A DNA stretch of 64,000 bases from an uncultured Verrucomicrobiae bacterium. GTDB lineage: Bacteria > Verrucomicrobiota > Verrucomicrobiia > Limisphaerales > JAFGQR01. This document shows, one piece after another, positions 5,920 to 64,000 of the stretch. The position numbers and the translations under genes were made by a program. The notes beneath the pieces were generated by a model, which had not been told where the DNA came from, ran no database searches, and was given only the letters and a program-made list of their open reading frames with translations. Location: positions 31,278 through 95,277 of the forward strand of contig CAWBHS010000100.1 of NCBI GenBank assembly GCA_963788655.1. The letters run 5' to 3'. Position 1 is the stretch's first letter. Each line of letters starts with the position of its first letter.

Positions 5920-6055
5920 TATCGCAATTGCGCGGATACGGTTCACGCAGCCACTCCCAAATAACCGAAACGGCTGTCCCGCGTGATCAGACAGCCGTTT
6001 CGGGAGTTTGATTGAGGTCGGCAGCCGCAACGGATGCGGACTCCGCCCCGTCCAT

Positions 6056-38573: not shown

Positions 38574-40208
38574 ATGCTTGGCGAATTGTTCATCCGCAAC
38601 TTGGGCCTGATCATCGTTGCCGCGGCGGTGTTCTCCGTCGTCGCCCGGTGGCTGCGCCTGCCCACGATTGTCGCCTACCTGCTCGCCGGCTTGGTGCTCG
38701 GGCCAGCAACCGGTCTGGTGCAACTGACCCCGTCCCTGGAACTAATCTCCGAGATCGGCATCGTGCTGTTGTTGTTCCTGGTGGGGCTGGAATTGAGTTT
38801 CGACAAACTCAAGGGCATGGGGCACGCGGTGCTGGTGGCCGGCGCGGCGCAGGTTGGCCTAACGGCGGTGGCCGGTTTTCTGATCTCCAAGTTGCTCGGA
38901 CTGGGCGCCACGGAGTCTTTGTTCCTGGCCCTGGCTTTCACGTTCAGCAGCACCGTTGTGGCGGTCAAACTCCTGGCTGAGAAACAGGAATTCAACAGCC
39001 TGCACGGCCGCCTGACGGTGGGCATTCTGTTGTTTCAAGATCTGGCGGTCATTGTCCTGCTGACGCTGATGGCCGGCTTTCAACCCAACGCGGCGCTCGA
39101 TTTGAAGAGCGTCAGCCTAAACCTGATCAAGGCGCTGGGTGGTATGAGCGCCCTGGTGGTATTGGCGATCGCTGCGTCGCGCTTCTGGTTGCCGCGTCCG
39201 TTTGCCTGGGCCTCGCGATCGCCGGGCACGCTGCTCATCTGGAGTCTTTGTTGGTGTTTCTTCGTGGTTGCCGGCGCGCATTGGTTGCACTTGTCCCCGG
39301 AAACCGGCGCGTTCCTGGCCGGCCTCAGCCTGGCCCAGCTTCCCTATAACCACGATCTTCGGCGGCGCGTGCATCCGTTGATGAACTTTTTTGTCGCGGT
39401 CTTTTTTGTTTCGCTGGGAATCAAGATGCAATTGGGCGCCGCGGTCGCGCAATGGCGCACGGCGGTGGCGTTTATCACCTTCGTGTTGGTTGGCAAATTT
39501 GTCATCATAATGTGGACGCTCGCCCGGCTGCGGTTCGGCGAACGCACCGCATTCCATTCCGCCCTGACGCTATCGCAGATCAGCGAATTCTCCTTCATCC
39601 TGGCGGCCGCCGGAGCCAGCGGCGGGTGGATCGATGCCTCGGCACTGTCGCTGGTGGGCCTGGCGGGATTGGTGACGTTCTCGGTGTCCGCCTGTTTGAT
39701 TATTTACAGCGAACCAGTCTTCCGGTTGGCCCACCGGCTGAGGTTATTGCGGCCCTTTGCCGCGCGGCCCGAACCGGAACCGCCTCCTACAGAAATCCCG
39801 CACCATGACCACGTCATCGTGGTGGGTATGAATACCCTGGGACGATTGATTGCCGTCCGCCTGCACGAACTGGGCGAGCCAGTGCTGGCCATTGACACGG
39901 ACCCGGTCAAGCTGGCCGGGCTGCCCTGCGAAACTCTGCACGGCAATGTGGAGTATCTGTCGGTGCTGGAGGAAGCCGGTTTGCCACGCGCCAAACTGCT
40001 CGTCTCCGCGCTACGCATTGAGCCCACCAACGATCTGTTGGCCTACCGGTGTCGCAGTTACAATATTCCGTGCAGCATTCAGGTGGTGGACCTTTCCGTG
40101 ACGGACCGGTTGCTGGAAATGGATGTCAACTACCTCATGATTCCCAAGGTCGATGGGATCAAGTTGCAAACCCGGGAACTGGTGCAACAAGGCTTTCTCA
40201 AATCATGA
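38574..40208 (+). CDS. CPA2 cation:proton antiporter with a TrkA-N (RCK) domain
   Basis: EIGIVLLLFLVGLE, FSSTVVAVK, GILLFQD, SQISEFSF, HVIVVG...IDTDP. Confidence 0.9.
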   Translation: MLGELFIRNLGLIIVAAAVFSVVARWLRLPTIVAYLLAGLVLGPATGLVQLTPSLELISEIGIVLLLFLVGLELSFDKLKGMGHAVLVAGAAQVGLTAVAGFLISKLLGLGATESLFLALAFTFSSTVVAVKLLAEKQEFNSLHGRLTVGILLFQDLAVIVLLTLMAGFQPNAALDLKSVSLNLIKALGGMSALVVLAIAASRFWLPRPFAWASRSPGTLLIWSLCWCFFVVAGAHWLHLSPETGAFLAGLSLAQLPYNHDLRRRVHPLMNFFVAVFFVSLGIKMQLGAAVAQWRTAVAFITFVLVGKFVIIMWTLARLRFGERTAFHSALTLSQISEFSFILAAAGASGGWIDASALSLVGLAGLVTFSVSACLIIYSEPVFRLAHRLRLLRPFAARPEPEPPPTEIPHHDHVIVVGMNTLGRLIAVRLHELGEPVLAIDTDPVKLAGLPCETLHGNVEYLSVLEEAGLPRAKLLVSALRIEPTNDLLAYRCRSYNIPCSIQVVDLSVTDRLLEMDVNYLMIPKVDGIKLQTRELVQQGFLKS

Positions 40209-41768
40209 GTGGCCTGGCGCTCATCCTGGTCGTGGCCGCAGTCGGTTATGGTCTGGCCAGATGGCTGCGGTTGCCGGTGATTCCGTTGCTCTTGTTCGCT
40301 GGCCTTGGCCTGGCGGTGTCGGGTTGGCTGCCGCGCCAGGATTTTACCGAAGACGCGTTCATCCTCGGGCTGGCGTTCCTGGTGTTTTCCGCCGGTATGG
40401 AGCTCAATCCCGAACGTTTCGGCAAACAGATCAAGGCGGTGCTTTGGGTTGGTCTGGCCCAGTTCATCCTCGTTGGTGGTTTCGGCCTGGCAGTCGCTTG
40501 GTTCTTGGGTTTTGAAGGCGTGGACGCCGTGTACTTGGGCATTGCGCTGTCCACCAGTTCGACATTGGTGGTCGTCAGTCACCTCAAACAGCAGCAACAG
40601 ATGTTTGAACCGTTTGCCCGACTGGTCATCGGCGTGCTGCTGGTCCAGGATTTGTTGATGATCCTGATCATCGTGGTGCTGGCCCGTTGGAGCGCCGGTG
40701 GGTGGGCGATCGCGATGAACCTGGGCGGGGTCCTGGCGTTGGCCGGGCTGGCTGGGGGGTTTCAGCGATGGTTGGTGCCTGCGCTCCTGATCCGGCGGCA
40801 ATTGGACGAGGAAACCTTGTTGCTGGTCGTGCTGGCGCTGTTGTTCACGTTTGTGGAACTGGCGTGGCAACTACACATCCCGCCGGTGGCGGCGGCTTTC
40901 CTCGCCGGTTTTGCGCTCGCTAATTTCCCGGCCAACGGCGTCGTACGCGGGCTATTGCTTTCATTGAACGACTTCTTCCTGGCGATCTTCTTTACCACCC
41001 TCGGCAGCCTGATCCTGTTGCCAGACCCGTGGCTGATCCTTAAAACCGTGGTGCTGGCCGGAATGGTGTTACTGGTGACGCCGCCATTGGTGGCCTGGCT
41101 CGCCGAATGGCAAGGACTCACCTCGCGCCCGGCGCTGGAGAGCGGCTTGCTCCTCGCGCAAACCAGCGAATTTGCGTTGGTCCTTGGCTTGGCCGGCAGC
41201 CAGATGGCAGCCCACATTTCGCGGGAGGCATTTTCCGTGATCGGCATGGTGGCGGTGGTCACCATGACGCTGACGCCGTTTGTGGCGACGGACCGTTTCA
41301 CCACGTTCTTGCTGCCGTTCTATCGACCGCGCCGCCTGCTTCAGGGGGAAGAGTCACGCCAGGATCACGTGCTGATGTTGGGCTTCGGCGCCGGCGGGAT
41401 GTGGGTGATCAAGCCGCTCCGCCAACAAGGACATGATGTGCTCATTGTGGATGACGATCCGGCAGTGATCGCGCAATTGCAGAAAATGAACATCCCCTGT
41501 ATCCGGGGCGATGGCGCCGACGAGAAAGTGTTGGACCGCGTCGGTGCCCGGCGGGCCAAGTTGATTCTGGCGTCCATGCGTCGGGTGGAAGAAGCGGTGC
41601 GGGTGCTCCAGGTACGTACCCGGCGTGCCGGTTGTCGTGCGAGTTTTCGAGGAAGCGGAAGCCGACCGGGTGCGCCAACTTGGTGGCATCCCGGTGCTCA
41701 ATTCCATCGCGGCCGCTGACACCTTCATGGAATGGTTTCAAAAGGTCATGCGCCGCGAACCCTCATAG
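40205..41768 (+). CDS. Second CPA2 cation:proton antiporter with an RCK domain; frameshift near 41612
   Basis: GLAFLVFSAGMEL, STSSTLVV, GVLLVQD, AQTSEF, LGFGAGG. Removing one G gives VLQYVPGVPVVVRVFE...REPS*. Confidence 0.85.
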
Positions 41769-57777: not shown

Positions 57778-60028
57778 TCACTTGATCTCGTTAGCGTTGC
57801 GCGATGGCCATATCGATGTCAGTTCGCAGACGGTCATTGACAGGATCTTGGGATGGCCGCCTTCGGAAGAAAGTTCCAGACTCGCACGGCCCGGGCGCGG
57901 CAGGAAGCACGAACTCATGGAGACTTTGCCCTCGTTGGCAAAGACCTCGATGGAACATCCGATCGATGAGGATGCGCAAAGTGATTTCGTCATTCGGTGT
58001 GTCGATTGCGGCTTCGCGGCCCAGACAAGTCAGGGTCCTTTTTTCGGCGGAATAGGCTATGGTTTCATCACGCCACTTGAGGCCGAACGACCGGGCATCC
58101 GCCAGCGCCACCCGCAATTGAAGGTCGAACAGGTCGCCGGAAAGTTGCCCGAGAAGGTTGGCGCCGGCTTCCACGGTCAGGTTGTTCCGGGTGTAGTCCT
58201 TTTTGTAAATGCTCTGGATCTCTTTGACCGGCATTCGGCAAATTCTCAGCCCTTCCGGGAAGGAACGCAGGGTCAAGTCGCAGGGGAACGTCAATTGTTG
58301 GTTGAACGGCATCTCGGGATATTTGCCGTCCCGCATCCACGCGATCTGCACGCGCCGGTCAGGCTGGCCCGGAATGTCACCCCAGGATTGCGTCGCGTAA
58401 AAGTTGGCGCCGAGGTCGCAAGGCAATTGGCCGGTTTGCGAGGTGAACTTGGTGCCGTCGAACTCGCCCACCGAATATTTGCCGTTGCCGCGGACCAGTA
58501 CCCACTTGAGGTGATTGCGGTCGCCATCCACCGGCAATTGAAAAAGATCGGGGCATTCGAAACATTCCGGAATGGGATGCTTCTGGTCAGTCCAAGTCAG
58601 CAGATTGGTTGAATTCAAGATGTGGTAGTGGGCGTCCGCATAGAGCACCATGACCCACTTGTGCCCTGGCGGATACCAAAACACCTTTGGGTCGCGTTCG
58701 GCGCGGATCATGTACGGATTGTTCGCATACTTGGCCCAGGTCAACCCATCGTCCACGCTGTAAGAGATGCACTGGCTGCGGTTGTCGAAACCGCTCCAAA
58801 AGGCCACCAGCGGCGGCTTCTTTGGATCCGTTGACAGCCCCGATACATTCAAGAGGTCATAGACGATGCTGCCGGACTGGACGCCGGTGCCAAACCGTTT
58901 CTCCTCCCAGAAAGCTGGCTGCAATTCGGTCCAATGGACCAAGTCTCGACTAACAAAGTGGAGCCAGCAACGCGCCCAGCGCTGAGCGAACAAGTGGTAT
59001 TGACCGTTGTGGTAAATGAGGCCGTTCACATCATTGATCCAACCTTCTTCCTGACGGCCGGGATTCAGCTTGCGAACCGTCCACTGCCGGGCCGTCACGT
59101 GAAACTGGGGGCGGTATTGTTCGCGGTAAAGATCGGCGGGCGGCGGAAGCAGGGAAGGCTTTTTCAAATAGGTCGGCTTGCGTGCGGCCACGCGCTGAGC
59201 GCCGCCGCTGAGGCATTCAATCTCGGTATCGGAGAGCGCCCGCTGCCATAAAGCGACGTGGTCGATTTGTCCTTTCCAGCCGGTCTTGATGTGGCCATTG
59301 ACCGATTCCGCGCCAATCAAGCAAGGCACCGTGTTGCCCTCGCGCAGCGGACCGTGGGGAAAGTCCTCATCCATCAACACTCCATCCACAAACATTTGCA
59401 GCCGCGACCCATCATAGCGGCAGATGACGGTGTGCCAATCGGTGGCGCCGATCTTGGCAACGGGCACCTTGGTCCGCCACCCCCCCGAGTGGTCTCGGGT
59501 CCCCAATTCGAAGCCAATTTCAGACGACAGGGAATAGAGATTATAGACGAGTTGGTCATGACCGCCGTGCTTGCTGAAGAGCGGCAATTCCCAGGTGGCG
59601 GCTGGACTACGCAGTCGCACGCTCACCGTCAACGCGGAACCTGTGACGTTCAACACGCCGTTAGCTCCTTGCCCGGCGTCGAAATAGCCGCTATCAAATT
59701 CGGCGACGATACCGTCATTGCCGCCGGCCAGCGATTCCTGGAGCTCCTTTCCCGTGAGTTGCTTTCCGAGCGTGACATTTCCCACCGCCGTAAGACCGTT
59801 CTTGCCGACGGAATCGTTGAGATCCGCCATCTGCCAAACCGCAACGGCAGTTCGAAAAATGTCGCCGGGTGATGGTGCCGGTTGTCCCGCGGACGCTAAG
59901 GTAACTGCGAGCAATAGGCCAATCGTCAAACTTGAATGAGGCACCTTGCCGGAGCAGGGGGCTGAGGTATTTGCAACCCGTTTCCTTTCGAATGGCCGCT
60001 CGTTGCGGGTGGTCTGAAGTTTGAACAT
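57778..60028 (-). CDS. GH32 beta-fructosidase/levanase with an N-terminal LamG/ConA-like domain; frameshift near 57953
   Basis: YRPQFH, WINDVNG, ERDPKV, CFECPDLF, FYATQSW. The C-terminus continues as CSIEVFANEG in the 57778-57993 frame. Confidence 0.88.
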
Positions 60029-60159
60029 TGAGCGAGAATACCGCCTGGCCATTGTCCGTCCAGATGGAAAGGGAGGTGAATACGGTGAAGCGGGAAATTC
60101 ACGTAATCCGGAAGCCACGCACCGAGGCCGATTGCAGCACGGACATTCTCGTCTGCATT

Positions 60160-60470
60160 GGGCGTCGCGCGGACCCTGGCAAGCCCCCTTGGCGGGCAGG
60201 GCGTCGATTTTTTCGGTGACAACTCCAGCACTTGTTGATATAAGAACACCAATGCTGAGAATGCCTGATTTTGGGTTGAGGCTGAAATCCCTTGCCGAGC
60301 CACGTCGGAGAGGTAGGCCTCCAGTATTTATTCGCTGGTCGCCGGGGCGGGCACTTGAGGATGGAAGCGAATGGAACGCCGGAGCCAACCGCAATCGGAT
60401 TGCTCCATGGAAAAGGACAGATGCTTCAACCGGGTTACCGCCTGCATCCGTGGTATCGTCTCAGCCTCAC
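60160..60470 (-). pseudogene. intI: Truncated integron integrase (N-terminal domain only)
   Basis: MQAVTRLKHLSFSMEQSDCGWLRRSIRF...SE*ILEAYLSDVARQGISASTQNQAFSALVFLYQQVL. In-frame TAA at 60328-60330, a frameshift near 60210, and no catalytic domain. Confidence 0.8.
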
Positions 60471-60496
60471 CCTGGTTTTTCCTTAATGCCCTGTTG

Positions 60497-60973
60497 TCAA
60501 CAACTTGGCCGGTTCACTATGTGTTCACTGGTCGCATAATAATAGTTCGACCAATAAATGACGATGCCCTCGAAAGGCAATCCGTGGGTCGCGTTAAACC
60601 AGTCCAGCATATCCTGGGGCGTGTTGAAGCCATCGGCGCGGGCAAATTTAAATGGATGCTCCAACGGTCGGCCGTTCAAGCTGATGCCCTCATGGGTGAT
60701 ACGGATCGACGCCACAAATTCCACCCTGGTTTCACGCAACACCCGTTGCTTGCTTCGATACGGGGCGCCGGTCCAACCCCGTAAACTGAGCCGGTCTCCC
60801 GGCTTTGGCATTCGCTTCGGAACGGGCCGCACAGTCTGGCATTTCTCACCCGAAAGCACCAGCCCAGCGAACTGCGGCTTAAACATACGCACGAAGGTCG
60901 AACCAGGCGACGCACCGAACCGCCGATCCGCTTGGCCGTTCGGTGCTGGCGTTTCGTGTTGTGGCTTTTTCAT
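60497..60973 (-). CDS. ASCH/PUA-like protein, cassette 1, antisense to the array
   Basis: FKPQFAGLVLSGEKCQTVR...KPGDRL (ASCH G.K..T.R motif); FARADGF....M..WF. Alternative start at MFKPQF (60886). Confidence 0.7.
   Translation of the reverse strand: MKKPQHETPAPNGQADRRFGASPGSTFVRMFKPQFAGLVLSGEKCQTVRPVPKRMPKPGDRLSLRGWTGAPYRSKQRVLRETRVEFVASIRITHEGISLNGRPLEHPFKFARADGFNTPQDMLDWFNATHGLPFEGIVIYWSNYYYATSEHIVNRPSC
60505..60551 (+). other. Putative attI site
   Basis: GTTCACT direct repeats at 60512 and 60523, then gcataataata-G/TTCGAC (60545-60551). This core is the exact complement of the next attC R'' box, GTCGAAC. Confidence 0.7.
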
Positions 60974-61006
60974 GGTTCGCGGCAGTCGGTGGTCTTGGCG
61001 TTAGCC
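60897..61006 (+). other. attC site 1
   Basis: R'' GTCGAAC ... R' GTTAGCC; internal palindrome caccgaaccgccg / gcggcagtcggtg. Confidence 0.8.
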
Positions 61007-61020
61007 CACATTCGCACACC

Positions 61021-61473
61021 ATGCGCCATCTGACCGTCATTCTTTGCTCGCTCGTTGCGGGGGTGCTGTTTCTCGCGGGGTGTTCTGACGGCGTTTCGGT
61101 TCGAGTCACCGATCAGAAGACGGGCCGACCCGTTTCGGGCGCTCTCGTTCATCGAGACCGACCAGCATCACGGTTCGATAAGATCACGAACCCTGTTGGC
61201 ACCACTTACCATCCGCTCACCACGGCAGATTCGCGCTGGACCGACACAAACGGCACATGCGTCCTCACAAAGTTGGAGCGGACAGACACTTTACGCATTT
61301 TCGTTGCGACTGCCGCGCCCCTGTCCCTGACCGTCGGAGACCGCGTGCTGTCGCTTTCGCCAGGCACGAACACGTTCACGTCCTTTGTCTATTCGGTGTG
61401 GCAGGAGGCAGGTTCACCGAAGATTTTGGTGGAGCAGCCATCTTGGGATTGGCAGAAAGAGAGACGACGATAA
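61021..61473 (+). CDS. Cassette 2: putative lipoprotein with a beta-sandwich (carboxypeptidase-regulatory-like) fold
   Basis: Lipobox LAGC; VRVTDQKTGRPVSGALV...TDTNG. Confidence 0.65.
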   Translation: MRHLTVILCSLVAGVLFLAGCSDGVSVRVTDQKTGRPVSGALVHRDRPASRFDKITNPVGTTYHPLTTADSRWTDTNGTCVLTKLERTDTLRIFVATAAPLSLTVGDRVLSLSPGTNTFTSFVYSVWQEAGSPKILVEQPSWDWQKERRR

Positions 61474-61477
61474 CGAG

Positions 61478-61603
61478 GGCTAACCAGATCACTGGAGCGA
61501 ACAGCCGCCCCGCTTCTCCGCTTGACGCTGAGGGGCAGTTCGGGTGCGCCTCGTGCGCTCCACCGTCACTGTCGGCGGCTGTCGCTCAGTTCGGTCGTTG
61601 GGC
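61478..61603 (+). other. attC site 2
   Basis: R'' GGCTAAC ... R' GTTGGGC; gagcgaacagccgcc / ggcggctgtcgctc. Confidence 0.85.
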
Positions 61604-61612
61604 GGAGTAATT

Positions 61613-61960
61613 GTGAGACGCATTCCGATAATCTTGATCGCCTTCCTGATAGGGATCGCTCTGGAGTTGATGCTACTGATGATTGGTGGCTTCGATCTTC
61701 GGATTGGAGGCGACGGCCCTGCGAGCCTTGTTTTGTTCATCACACATCTTCCAGCGATGTACCTTTGCAGCGCTCTTCCATTGAAGCTCCAGACAGACTT
61801 GGCCGTGATCATTGCAATGACATGCTTGCTCTCCATTGCGGCATTCATGATTATCAGTCTCCTGAGAATGCGACGATCAGAACCGCGACCGAAGGCCCAA
61901 CAAGTGCGATTGACCGAACAGCCCACCCGCCTGGCAGCGGACATTGATCATGAAAATTGA
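61613..61960 (+). CDS. Cassette 3: small hypothetical membrane protein (about 3 TM)
   Basis: GGAG then a GTG start; hydrophobic segments; the ORF runs into attC3. Confidence 0.6.
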   Translation: MRRIPIILIAFLIGIALELMLLMIGGFDLRIGGDGPASLVLFITHLPAMYLCSALPLKLQTDLAVIIAMTCLLSIAAFMIISLLRMRRSEPRPKAQQVRLTEQPTRLAADIDHEN

Positions 61961-62020
61961 GACTCACATTTGCAGTCGAGGCTGGCGCTTCCGGGGCTGT
62001 CGGTCATCTCGGCGTTCGGC
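61895..62020 (+). other. attC site 3
   Basis: R'' GCCCAAC ... R' GTTCGGC; tgaccgaacagccc / gggctgtcggtca. Confidence 0.8.
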
Positions 62021-62034
62021 AACATGAGGAAAGT

Positions 62035-62724
62035 ATGCGAGTTCTCACTTTATTTCTGATATTCGTTGGCCAAGCTGCATTAGCGAGCGATGCAAGTCTG
62101 GCCGTTGAGGATTTGAAGAACCACGTTGATGACCTGACGCTGGTTGTTATCGGACGCCCCGGCTTTTCACTTCCGAAGGTTGGAGACCGTCCTTGCTTTA
62201 CGAAGTTACATTCCGGCAAAGCCGCGTTCGGAACTCAAAATGATGCTTGGTTTGGAGGCGCGCCGTCCGCGTCCGATATAAAGATCACGCGCAAAGAAAT
62301 GCTGGCCGTTGTTCAAGCGTTTGAGGAAAAGTTGCTTCAACGATCTGTTCGCCGCATCATCGCACTCGACGAGCTTAAGAGATCGGCGCCAGGTTATCCA
62401 ACCCATGTGTTTGAAGGGGGTAAAGAAGGACTGACTGCGGGTGCTGTCGCGGTCGGCTATACCGCTGCGGACTCAAGAATTGTCTATTACCTGGTACGGT
62501 TCGACGATCGGGACGAGGCGATACAGATGCTGACGAAACTCCAAGGCGATGTGAATAAGTCTGAGTCGGCTGCTACCGTGATTGGGAATGTTATTTGGAG
62601 ACTCAAAGAAAGAAATGCCGAACCAGACGGCGCAGCGAACGTGAGCCAGCCGTTCAGCTCGCAAGAAAAAACGAACGTCATCGGCGGCTGGCTCCCGTCG
62701 CTGGCCTTTGCGTTAGGCGCATGA
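62035..62724 (+). CDS. Cassette 4: hypothetical secreted protein
   Basis: GAGG RBS; MRVLTLFLIFVGQAALA signal peptide; the ORF reads through attC4. Confidence 0.6.
   Translation: MRVLTLFLIFVGQAALASDASLAVEDLKNHVDDLTLVVIGRPGFSLPKVGDRPCFTKLHSGKAAFGTQNDAWFGGAPSASDIKITRKEMLAVVQAFEEKLLQRSVRRIIALDELKRSAPGYPTHVFEGGKEGLTAGAVAVGYTAADSRIVYYLVRFDDRDEAIQMLTKLQGDVNKSESAATVIGNVIWRLKERNAEPDGAANVSQPFSSQEKTNVIGGWLPSLAFALGA
62617..62718 (+). other. attC site 4
   Basis: R'' GCCGAAC ... R' GTTAGGC; cagcgaacgtgagccagccg / cggctggctcccgtcgctg. Confidence 0.85.
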
Positions 62725-63567
62725 CGCTGCACTTCACCGAGCCGCCGTCGAAGGAGGGAATTCCCGCGGACAGTGGAACGAACTCTGTCCCAAGCCCGAT
62801 GAGCGCCTTGAGTCGCATTGCCCTGATCGCGGCCCTGGGCCTGGCATTCGCAGCGACACTCGTTGCGTCCTGGCCGTTAACGGGCTGGCTCAAGCAGGTG
62901 ATCAAGATTCCCCGGAGCGGCTATGTTTCGTACAATGAGATTGTGGCAGAGATGCTGAGCAGAACGGCGCTAATCGTTGTCTGGTCATTGCCGTTGTTGG
63001 TCCTACCTCAGCTCCGTGACATCGGCTCGTTTCGGCTCCCACGCACTTGGACGCCTTTACTGTTGTTTCCCATTCTTGCTCTCAACATCTACTTCTTTGG
63101 CCGCTTTCCCGTTTCCATTCCCTTGCTGGCTCACTTTACCCTCGCTTGCGATGGAGTATTACCAGCGGTCGTCGAGGAGCTAGTGTTTCGCGGCTATGCT
63201 TTTCGGCGCTTTCCCAAAGCGCATCCGCGACTGGTGGTTCTCACCTCCTCGGCGTGTTTTACACTTGTCCATTTGGTGAATGTCGGCACCGGCTCTGTTG
63301 CCTCGGGTACTTGCCACTTTCCCATTTGTATTCGCTTGTGGCTTGAGCTTCGGAGTCATCCGCATGGCATCGGGCAGTCTCGCCTGGTGCATGCTTGCGC
63401 ATGGAGCCGTCAACGCCTCGTCAGCACTGGCAATGACAGGTGGCCCCCGCGAGCAGATGCTCCCCTTTGTCACGGCGATCGTCGGCATTGGAGCGGTGAC
63501 GACGTTCTTCTTACACCCGAAACTCCGAAGTCGCCCACTTACGCCTGACGCACCGAAATGCGCCTAA
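62721..63567 (+). CDS. Cassette 5: CPBP (CAAX/Abi-family) intramembrane metalloprotease; frameshift near 63310
   Basis: VVEELVFRGY, FTLVH, and CMLAHGAVN in the 63280-63567 frame; stop inside R'' of attC5. Alternative start at 62799. Confidence 0.75.
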
Positions 63568-63688
63568 CAAAACGGATGCACACGAACCGCCGCCCCGCCT
63601 CTCAGTTTCGATCCTCCGGATTCTTCGGACACTGGATTCGCAGCCAGCGTCCACTCCCGGCGGCGGTCGGTGATCCGTGTCGTTAGGC
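63562..63688 (+). other. attC site 5
   Basis: R'' GCCTAAC ... R' GTTAGGC; cggatgcacacgaaccgccg / cggcggtcggtgatccg. Confidence 0.88.
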
Positions 63689-63692
63689 GACT

Positions 63693-63980
63693 ATGGACGT
63701 CACACCACCAACTTGGTCGCTGAAGGCTGACAGATGCAGCTATTGCGAGGTTGGTGAGTTGGTCTTTTCGCAGTGTCCAGCCTGTGCTGTGGTTGTGTTT
63801 GTTTGCGGTGAGTGCGGCACTGTTTACGAGATTCAGGACGGCAGGAGAGGCAGAGAGGTTGGTGACACCAGTGGCGCGACACGTTGCCACGCTTGTTCAG
63901 TCCCGTATCAGCATGAGTTTCCGCCTGCCACAGCAGCAGTCATTCAGAGCCTTGGTTTTTCAGTTGGAGATTACAGATGA
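63693..63980 (+). CDS. Cassette 6: small Cys-rich zinc-ribbon protein
   Basis: Four CxxC pairs (CSYC, CPAC, CGEC, CHAC) in 95 aa. Confidence 0.7.
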   Translation: MDVTPPTWSLKADRCSYCEVGELVFSQCPACAVVVFVCGECGTVYEIQDGRRGREVGDTSGATRCHACSVPYQHEFPPATAAVIQSLGFSVGDYR

Positions 63981-63993
63981 GACACGATTTGTC

Positions 63994-64000
63994 GCCTAAC
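63994..64000 (+). other. Start (R'') of attC site 6, cut off by the window edge
   Basis: gtcgcctaac is complementary to gttaggcgac at 63682. Confidence 0.75.

Follow-up and report, generated by a model that had tools for sequence, protein, structure and literature searches.

A probable decayed integron platform, one of many cassette arrays in a Verrucomicrobiota metagenome-assembled genome

What is left of an integron when its integrase has been destroyed, and could its cassettes still be moved? The question was raised by a stretch of 64,000 nucleotides (the window, G000:C100:31278-95277) from an uncultured Verrucomicrobiae bacterium, whose last 4 kb carry a broken integron integrase gene (intI), an attI region and six gene cassettes ending in attC sites. 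The last base of the window is also the last base of its contig. The genome, G000, amounted to 8.96 Mb in 115 contigs, with 86% completeness and 5.6% contamination, and was regarded as a metagenome-assembled genome (MAG) because of these figures. A sequence-only reading of the window had proposed a dead integrase, an intact attI and a register-matched cassette array of heterogeneous origin, frozen or mobilised in trans. In the present analysis the region was very probably a decayed chromosomal integron platform, one of many cassette arrays in this MAG, and the odds between action in trans on its cassettes and a frozen array seemed, from the sequences at hand, to be roughly even.

Integrase remnant and attI

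The left end of the element was composed of two features.

60079..60468, minus strand: intI pseudogene, with the N-terminal SAM-like domain only (TIGR02249, PF13495, tblastn, blastn)
60469..60547, plus strand: attI region, from the intI start to the crossover G|TT in the core GTTCGAC (60545-60551), from alignment with contigs C69, C46 and C44

The minus-strand frame from 60447 matched positions 8-82 of 315 of TIGR02249 (43.7 bits, E 2e-11) and PF13495 (E 1.7e-13), and the best NCBIfam match of the remnant peptide was an integron integrase. Thus the peptide of 60160-60470, in which an integrase had been suspected, did align with IntI; its location was right and its true span, 60079-60468, somewhat longer. 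An intact paralogue of 314 aa (IntI_C69) was encoded on contig C69 of the same genome. Its residues 3-127 could be aligned by tblastn with window 60468-60079 at 59% identity over 130 columns, while residues 128-314, which include all catalytic residues, gave no further tblastn match in the 3.1 kb searched.

At the DNA level the remnant was 81% identical to the IntI_C69 gene over 364 nt (blastn), with 69 substitutions or gaps, and this low identity points to an old divergence of the copies. A TAA stop, read directly at 60328-60330, stood where the alignment showed CAA in the intact paralogue, one nucleotide was deleted in an A-run near 60208-60215, and the ATG start of C69 read CAG in the window; there was also one in-frame difference of 3 nt. 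The nonsense codon, the frameshift and the loss of the catalytic domain proposed earlier were therefore all recovered in the comparison with IntI_C69. No functional integrase with the IntI-specific additional domain stood beside the array, as it would in a complete integron in the sense of IntegronFinder.

The attI region lay between intI and the first cassette and was recognised, together with its crossover G|TT, by comparison. It could be aligned with its counterpart next to the intact intI of C69 and with those next to the intI remnants of C46 and C44. All four diverged directly after GTT, where different first cassettes begin (the C69 contig stops at GTTCG), which is what different first cassettes inserted at one shared attI would look like. 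The direct repeat GTTCACT was read twice in the region, at about 60514 and 60525. The earlier description of an intact attI held as far as conservation is concerned, since the region agreed with the copy beside the intact paralogue; intactness itself would go further than this alignment.

attC sites

A profile seeded with the five complete sites of the window was searched against the genome with nhmmer and gave 76, then 88 sites. Forty-one full-length sites, none of them on C100, were chosen from the 88 to avoid circularity (nhmmer score >=40, near-complete model coverage, within the fetched regions), and a covariance model, R1, was made from their alignment. The R/L structure of 25 pairs was written by hand because RNAalifold gave only a 9-pair L stem, with a bulged A. 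In the hand-written structure 79.5% of the cells were paired; sliding the 3' partners lowered this to 27-52%. Changes on both sides were seen in 16 of the 25 pairs, and the observed pairing or covariation was reached by none of 500 shuffles. The following sites were identified in the window.

60897-61006, plus strand: attC1, 110 bp (R1 58.4 bits, E 6.6e-12)
61478-61603, plus strand: attC2, 126 bp (R1 104 bits, E 1.3e-22)
61895-62020, plus strand: attC3, 126 bp (R1 87.5 bits, E 1e-18)
62617-62718, plus strand: attC4, 102 bp (R1 36.6 bits, E 8.9e-7)
63562-63688, plus strand: attC5, 127 bp (R1 110 bits, E 5.1e-24)
63991-64000, plus strand: attC6, partial, the first 10 nt including R'' GTCGCCTAAC, cut by the contig end

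The five complete sites, whose lengths agree with the 102-127 bp given before, were placed by R1 exactly at the deduced boundaries (E 5e-24 to 9e-7). The one other R1 match in the 64 kb, at 5956-6012 (14.9 bits, E 0.11), was far from the array and is probably a chance hairpin. Each complete site had an R'' ending in AAC, an R' starting with GTT and an L''/L' hairpin, and AAC and GTT were invariant in all 41 genome sites. When the bottom strands were folded as DNA, the expected R/L hairpin appeared in four of the five sites, either as the minimum free energy (MFE) fold or as the centroid, and the bases left unpaired lay on the '' arm. The predicted folds thus had extrahelical bases on the R''-L'' arm; the A of CGAAC, a T on the bottom strand, was unpaired and nearly invariant in the alignment.

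Core pairs and cassette register

The left core of each cassette and its own R'' box were as follows.

Cassette 1: GTTCGAC at 60545 and GTCGAAC at 60897
Cassette 2: GTTAGCC at 61000 and GGCTAAC at 61478
Cassette 3: GTTGGGC at 61597 and GCCCAAC at 61895
Cassette 4: GTTCGGC at 62014 and GCCGAAC at 62617
Cassette 5: GTTAGGCGCAT at 62712 and ATGCGCCTAAC at 63558
Cassette 6: GTTAGGCGAC at 63682 and GTCGCCTAAC at 63991

All six pairs were found where they had first been read, and in six of six cassettes the own left end was complementary to the own R''. This is the proper test of register because R' is a hybrid, taking its G from the left cassette and its TTxxxx from the right one. A left end TTxxxx matching its own R'' is what a circle leaves behind after insertion by a crossover that falls between G and TT. 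Of 36 consecutive site pairs in the genome, 17 were perfect (7/7), whereas 2000 shuffles of the pairings averaged 3.45 perfect pairs and never gave more than 9, and R' and R'' within one site matched perfectly in just 6 of 69 sites, so the result for the window was far beyond chance. Some of the 19 imperfect genome pairs are probably explained by an undetected intervening site. The central proposal, namely that integron cassettes stand next to a dead intI and keep the register expected of integrated circles, was borne out by these results. Several cores had also been said to deviate from GTTRRRY, and three of six did so (GTTCGAC, GTTAGCC and GTTCGGC); GTTCGGC was the commonest R' of the genome (14 of 69 sites).

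The attC family in the genome and in the order

By a 4-kb rule the 88 nhmmer sites formed 42 clusters, the largest with 8 sites. Half of the clusters (21) held at least two sites and all of these were uniformly oriented, and the other 21 were single sites. Five of the 42 lay beside an intI or an intI remnant. Seven touched contig ends, and therefore attC repeats probably broke the assembly. With R1, 94 matches at E<=1e-3 were obtained, a rough count because only 150 of 7174 candidates were scored. The 21 single attC-like sites and 16 multi-site clusters were without a recognisable intI within 4 kb, and many of them were located in the middle of contigs.

The window sites differed from one another (66% mean column identity, n=5), and yet each of them, interior included, had a full-length relative elsewhere in the genome at 82-89% identity (blastn). 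The array is therefore not of heterogeneous origin, and the dissimilar interiors that had suggested this do not set its sites apart: they belong to one lineage-typical family of 88-94 copies in the genome. From these alignments, the window array can be taken to draw on several sub-types of that family.

Thirty genera of the same order were sampled. R1 matches at E<=1e-4 were observed in 19 of them, and IntI above the TIGR02249 cut-off in 11. G000 was the richest in R1 matches, with 88 in the order-wide run and 16 in the next genome, while the single same-genus genome sampled had 4. R1 sites adjoined an IntI above the cut-off on C49 and C59 of G000, and in relatives at loci L037 and L038 and, by coordinates, in G006, G016, G019, G025 and G026.

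Integrase loci elsewhere in the genome

Eight intI loci were found in the MAG. They fell into two types that share 36-39% identity; one locus was intact and seven were broken. The intact gene, which answers the earlier proposal to look for one in the genome, was

C69:40021-40965: IntI_C69, an open 314-aa frame (TIGR02249 match 40024-40947, 274.8 bits, cut-off 265)

Three loci scored above the TIGR02249 cut-off, namely C69 with an open frame, C49 with a TAG stop and C59a with a TAA stop. IntI_C69 could be aligned with the solved Vibrio cholerae integrase VchIntIA (2A3V) over residues 9-304 (E 6e-47), and the alignment took in the integron-specific insertion. What we take to be the catalytic residues R, K, H-x-x-R, H and Y, judged by eye from the known motifs, were seen in it as well. 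The closest public relatives of IntI_C69 were from two Verrucomicrobiota MAGs (64% and 60% identity). Three more remnants of the same type were revealed by tblastn with IntI_C69, on C62 (residues 36-121 and 274-313), C46 (3-85) and C44 (3-73). The C69 contig was 41 kb long and ended at attI. The idea that C69 and the window are alleles of one locus in two strains was ruled out, as the flanks were dissimilar and the shared part was 81% identical.

A fourth locus, C59b (L018), was split by an insertion at C59:67904-68189, which separates the codons of RLRV from those of KDVD. The inserted piece was about 284 bp long, had inverted repeats of 12-14 nt at its edges and was filled by an open reading frame (ORF) of 87 aa, whose putative product is GIY-YIG-like. 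In the C49 paralogue (88-90% identical), three extra bases at the same spot (C49:288885-288889, L017) created the TAG stop and may be an excision footprint. An ORF 62% identical to that of the insert, likewise between short inverted repeats, was observed on C60.

Cassettes and flanking gene

Five of the six cassette ORFs were co-oriented with the array, and that of cassette 1 was reversed.

60546..61000, plus strand: cassette 1, with a reverse 158-aa ORF (60497-60973, minus strand), ending with attC1
61001..61597, plus strand: cassette 2, with a 150-aa ORF for a putative lipoprotein (61021-61473), ending with attC2
61598..62014, plus strand: cassette 3, with a 115-aa membrane-protein-like ORF (GTG at 61613 to 61960), ending with attC3
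62015..62712, plus strand: cassette 4, with a 229-aa secreted-protein-like ORF (62035-62724), ending with attC4
62713..63682, plus strand: cassette 5, with a CPBP/Rce1-like intramembrane protease gene in frames 62721-63548 and 63280-63567, ending with attC5
63683..64000, plus strand: cassette 6, with a 95-aa Cys-rich ORF (63693-63980), its attC cut after 10 nt by the contig end

In searches of the cassette proteins against PADLOC and NCBIfam, no defence family and no named family was found except for weak matches of cassette 5 to CPBP families of NCBIfam. The ORF of cassette 1 had no Pfam, NCBIfam or PADLOC family; it was antisense to the array, its last 16 codons crossed the junction into attI, and it may be spurious or have its own promoter. 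The lipoprotein of cassette 2 is predicted from an N-terminal ...LAGC motif read by eye. A copy of cassette 3 was present in another array (C67:24261-24574), with 93.3% identity over 314 nt from window 61600 onward (blastn). The homology began just inside the cassette junction, and this speaks for a past movement of whole cassettes as units in the lineage.

The ORF of cassette 4 read through all of attC4, and its TGA overlapped the ATG of cassette 5 (ATGA; window 62617-62724), so that its last three codons came from the neighbouring cassette. The gene of cassette 5 was frameshifted, since PF02517 was split over two frames, with positions 6-56 in one and 58-92 in the other; the change of frame in window 63280-63320 may be genuine or may come from an error in the MAG consensus. 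For cassette 6, no other contig of G000 continued the array in a blastn search with window 63700-64000.

Left of the integron one flanking gene was recognised.

57791..60052, minus strand: flanking gene outside the integron, with a LamG-type lectin domain and a GH32 glycoside hydrolase domain (PF00251 E 2e-46, PF13385 E 1e-16)

It began 27 nt past the last recognisable intI residue, and this start at 60052 marks the deletion endpoint, so intI has lost its 3' two thirds. An 867-aa open frame in the window (57791-60394, minus strand) was rejected as a read-through, in which the 114 codons upstream of the true start at 60052 are the out-of-frame intI remnant.

The GC content was 52-60% in the array and 54-63% in the flanks, and the composition profile gave no usable contrast between them. 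In scans of 59900-64000, terminator counts were not above those of shuffled sequences and three promoter-like sites were found against 1.8 +/- 1.5 expected; no Pc promoter is claimed because neither count exceeded the shuffles.

Origin, mobility and alternative explanations

The region would have been a complete chromosomal integron formerly, with intI on the minus strand, attI adjacent and the cassettes running rightwards. The integrase would then have been lost by the 3' deletion of residues 128-314, together with the nonsense codon, the 1-nt deletion and the loss of the start codon, leaving attI and at least six cassettes, each ending in an attC of the lineage's own family. An attC of this kind has AAC at the end of R'', GTT at the start of R' and, between them, an L''/L' stem whose bulged bases are on the '' arm. 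Since the genome also encodes an undamaged IntI of the remnant's type, mobilisation in trans is plausible: IntI_C69, or the second type of integrase provided that one of its copies works, may still excise and reinsert the window cassettes. The cassettes would leave as circles when the folded bottom strands of two sites recombine (attC x attC) and would be reinserted at an attI, and the first cassettes could be expressed from a promoter in the attI/intI region.

Several results weigh against this account. The MFE structure of attC1 was an internal hairpin instead of the canonical fold, and the fold z-scores were modest (-1.2 to -4.4), three of five being weaker than -3. The weakest site, attC4, was absent from the own-genome list at E<=1e-3. 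The covariance model that the sites passed is R1, which is specific to the lineage and other than the attC model of IntegronFinder; with this limit, the refutation test suggested for the sites and the peptide came out in favour of the finding. That IntI_C69 occurs in the same cell as the window array is assumed, as it lies on a separate contig of a MAG. The promoter-like sites were near expectation, the frameshifted gene of cassette 5 is a sign of decay, and the age of the remnant's divergence, another such sign, would argue for a frozen state.

The array may indeed be a frozen relic on which no integrase acts, with cassettes that decay or evolve in place as chromosomal genes and sites that are ignored by IntI_C69. 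The four independent defects of the remnant, its 19% DNA divergence from the intact copy and the broken CPBP gene would fit with this, and seven broken intI loci of eight suggest a general loss of integrase activity. We regard it as possible, with rather more doubt than belief, because the core complementarity is perfect in all six cassettes, pairing persists in the attC stems, attI has been conserved as far as the crossover, cassette 3 recurs in a second array with homology from the junction, and the genome still encodes an undamaged integrase of the remnant's type. An artefact of assembly or binning is very improbable. Chimerism of the contig, errors of the consensus or mixed strains might account for the truncation, for the frameshifts or for an intact intI occurring alongside, in a MAG of this contig number and contamination, where many arrays stand at contig ends and near-identical duplicate loci exist (e.g. 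C44/C46, C13/C51 and C44/C62/C45). However, the 69 substitutions or gaps show the remnant to be a paralogue and not a misassembled copy of C69, the flanks of the two loci are dissimilar, three further remnants have different truncation endpoints, and the wide occurrence of the attC family and of integron integrases in the order indicates that the integron belongs to the lineage.

That the element is not an integron at all is close to refuted. The sites would then be lineage-specific intergenic palindromic repeats, resembling repetitive extragenic palindromic (REP) sequences or miniature inverted-repeat transposable elements (MITE), next to an unrelated tyrosine-recombinase fragment. Half of the clusters are scattered single sites, and an Rfam scan of 59500-64000 at E<=1 gave no attC call and no family match, its sole hit being a chance snoRNA (E 0.52). 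Against this stand the NCBIfam assignment of the remnant peptide, its 59% identity to IntI_C69, which scores above the TIGR02249 cut-off and can be aligned with VchIntIA, the uniform orientation of all 21 multi-site clusters, the position of the sites around single ORFs at cassette-like spacing, the own-left-core rule, and the sites that abut integron integrases in G000 and seven related genomes.

Beyond a decayed platform, a larger scheme can be imagined, in which the one surviving integrase (C69) serves about 90 attC sites at about 40 loci as a distributed integron, and the repeated loss of intI with attI kept is selected instead of being mere decay. We consider it unlikely. If it were true, at least four decayed platform copies with conserved attI would act as extra docking sites, with one master and many slave platforms.

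Relation to known integrons

A cluster of attC sites lacking integron-integrase (CALIN) is defined in PMC4889954 (Cury 2016) by at least two attC sites and no integrase within 4 kb. The window has five complete sites and a cut one, and its nearest intI is the remnant without the C-terminal domain; by the IntegronFinder definitions quoted there it would count as a CALIN accompanied by an N-terminal intI pseudogene. Like the CALINs of PMC4889954, it has at least five co-oriented attC sites, no functional intI within 4 kb and an IntI elsewhere in the genome, and loss of intI by mutation or deletion is among the origins proposed for them. Unlike these, it keeps a recognisable attI and the N-terminal third of intI. 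In the same paper intI pseudogenes were reported near 15 of 279 CALINs and were sought via the C-terminal domain, so a remnant of the window's type would escape that screen. It also stated that half of all CALINs are in genomes encoding IntI elsewhere, and suggested that their cassettes may be used by integrases in trans. The loss of intI by mutation, insertion or deletion was described as a route to CALINs in PMC8618304 (Ghaly 2021).

With the superintegron of Vibrio cholerae, an example of a sedentary chromosomal integron, the window shares a chromosomal location, a homogeneous, lineage-typical attC family, cassettes mostly of unknown function and an intI divergent from the array; IntI_C69 aligns with VchIntIA over its whole length. 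In contrast, the cassettes of G000 are spread over 42 clusters (at most 8 sites by nhmmer) with several platform copies, and the identity of IntI to 2A3V is low. A chromosomal intI that is inactivated while its array persists is reportedly also found in Xanthomonas.

Sedentary chromosomal integrons, by the criteria quoted in PMC4889954, have more than 19 attC sites or are present in all genomes of a species; the window array, with at least six cassettes up to the contig end, is below the former number. In PMC2426708 (Nemergut 2008), pseudogenes made up nearly one third of the intI genes, and more than one intI was present in 20% of bacteria. As in the inactivated chromosomal intI genes of that study, stops, frameshifts and deletions kill intI and the array persists, but here the phylum is another one and seven of eight intI loci, of two types, are broken in one MAG.

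The integrons of the lineage had been called little studied, and this holds in part. We found no dedicated study of Verrucomicrobiota integrons in the literature searches made, although integrons were reported in Verrucomicrobia in PMC4889954, where 36 genomes had more than one IntI, and the phylum was listed among the integron-bearing ones in PMC8618304. Dead integrases, CALINs and integrons of Verrucomicrobia have thus been published already, and the known mechanism of integrons is unchanged. For the window the value is one of annotation, as an ORF caller shows six small hypothetical genes and the spurious 867-aa frame instead of an integron remnant, and tools keyed to the C-terminal domain of the integrase would label the array a bare CALIN. 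Of main interest is the genome-wide picture of an attC family shared at order level, an unusually large load of 88-94 sites and eight intI loci, which would make G000 well suited to two questions: whether a single integrase can serve many arrays, and whether attI is kept once intI has been lost.

Other observations

Four sequencing runs were listed for the genome, with about 0.05 of the sampled words in each. A tyrosine recombinase of 355 aa, not an integron integrase (90-96 bits against TIGR02249), was present in at least three near-identical copies (C44:24352-25185, C62:26022-26855 and C45:1536-2311). Two of these stood directly beside an attC-like site (C62:25673-25797 and C45:2592-2713), and the frame downstream of the recombinase presumably resembles the N-terminus of an IS91-family transposase.

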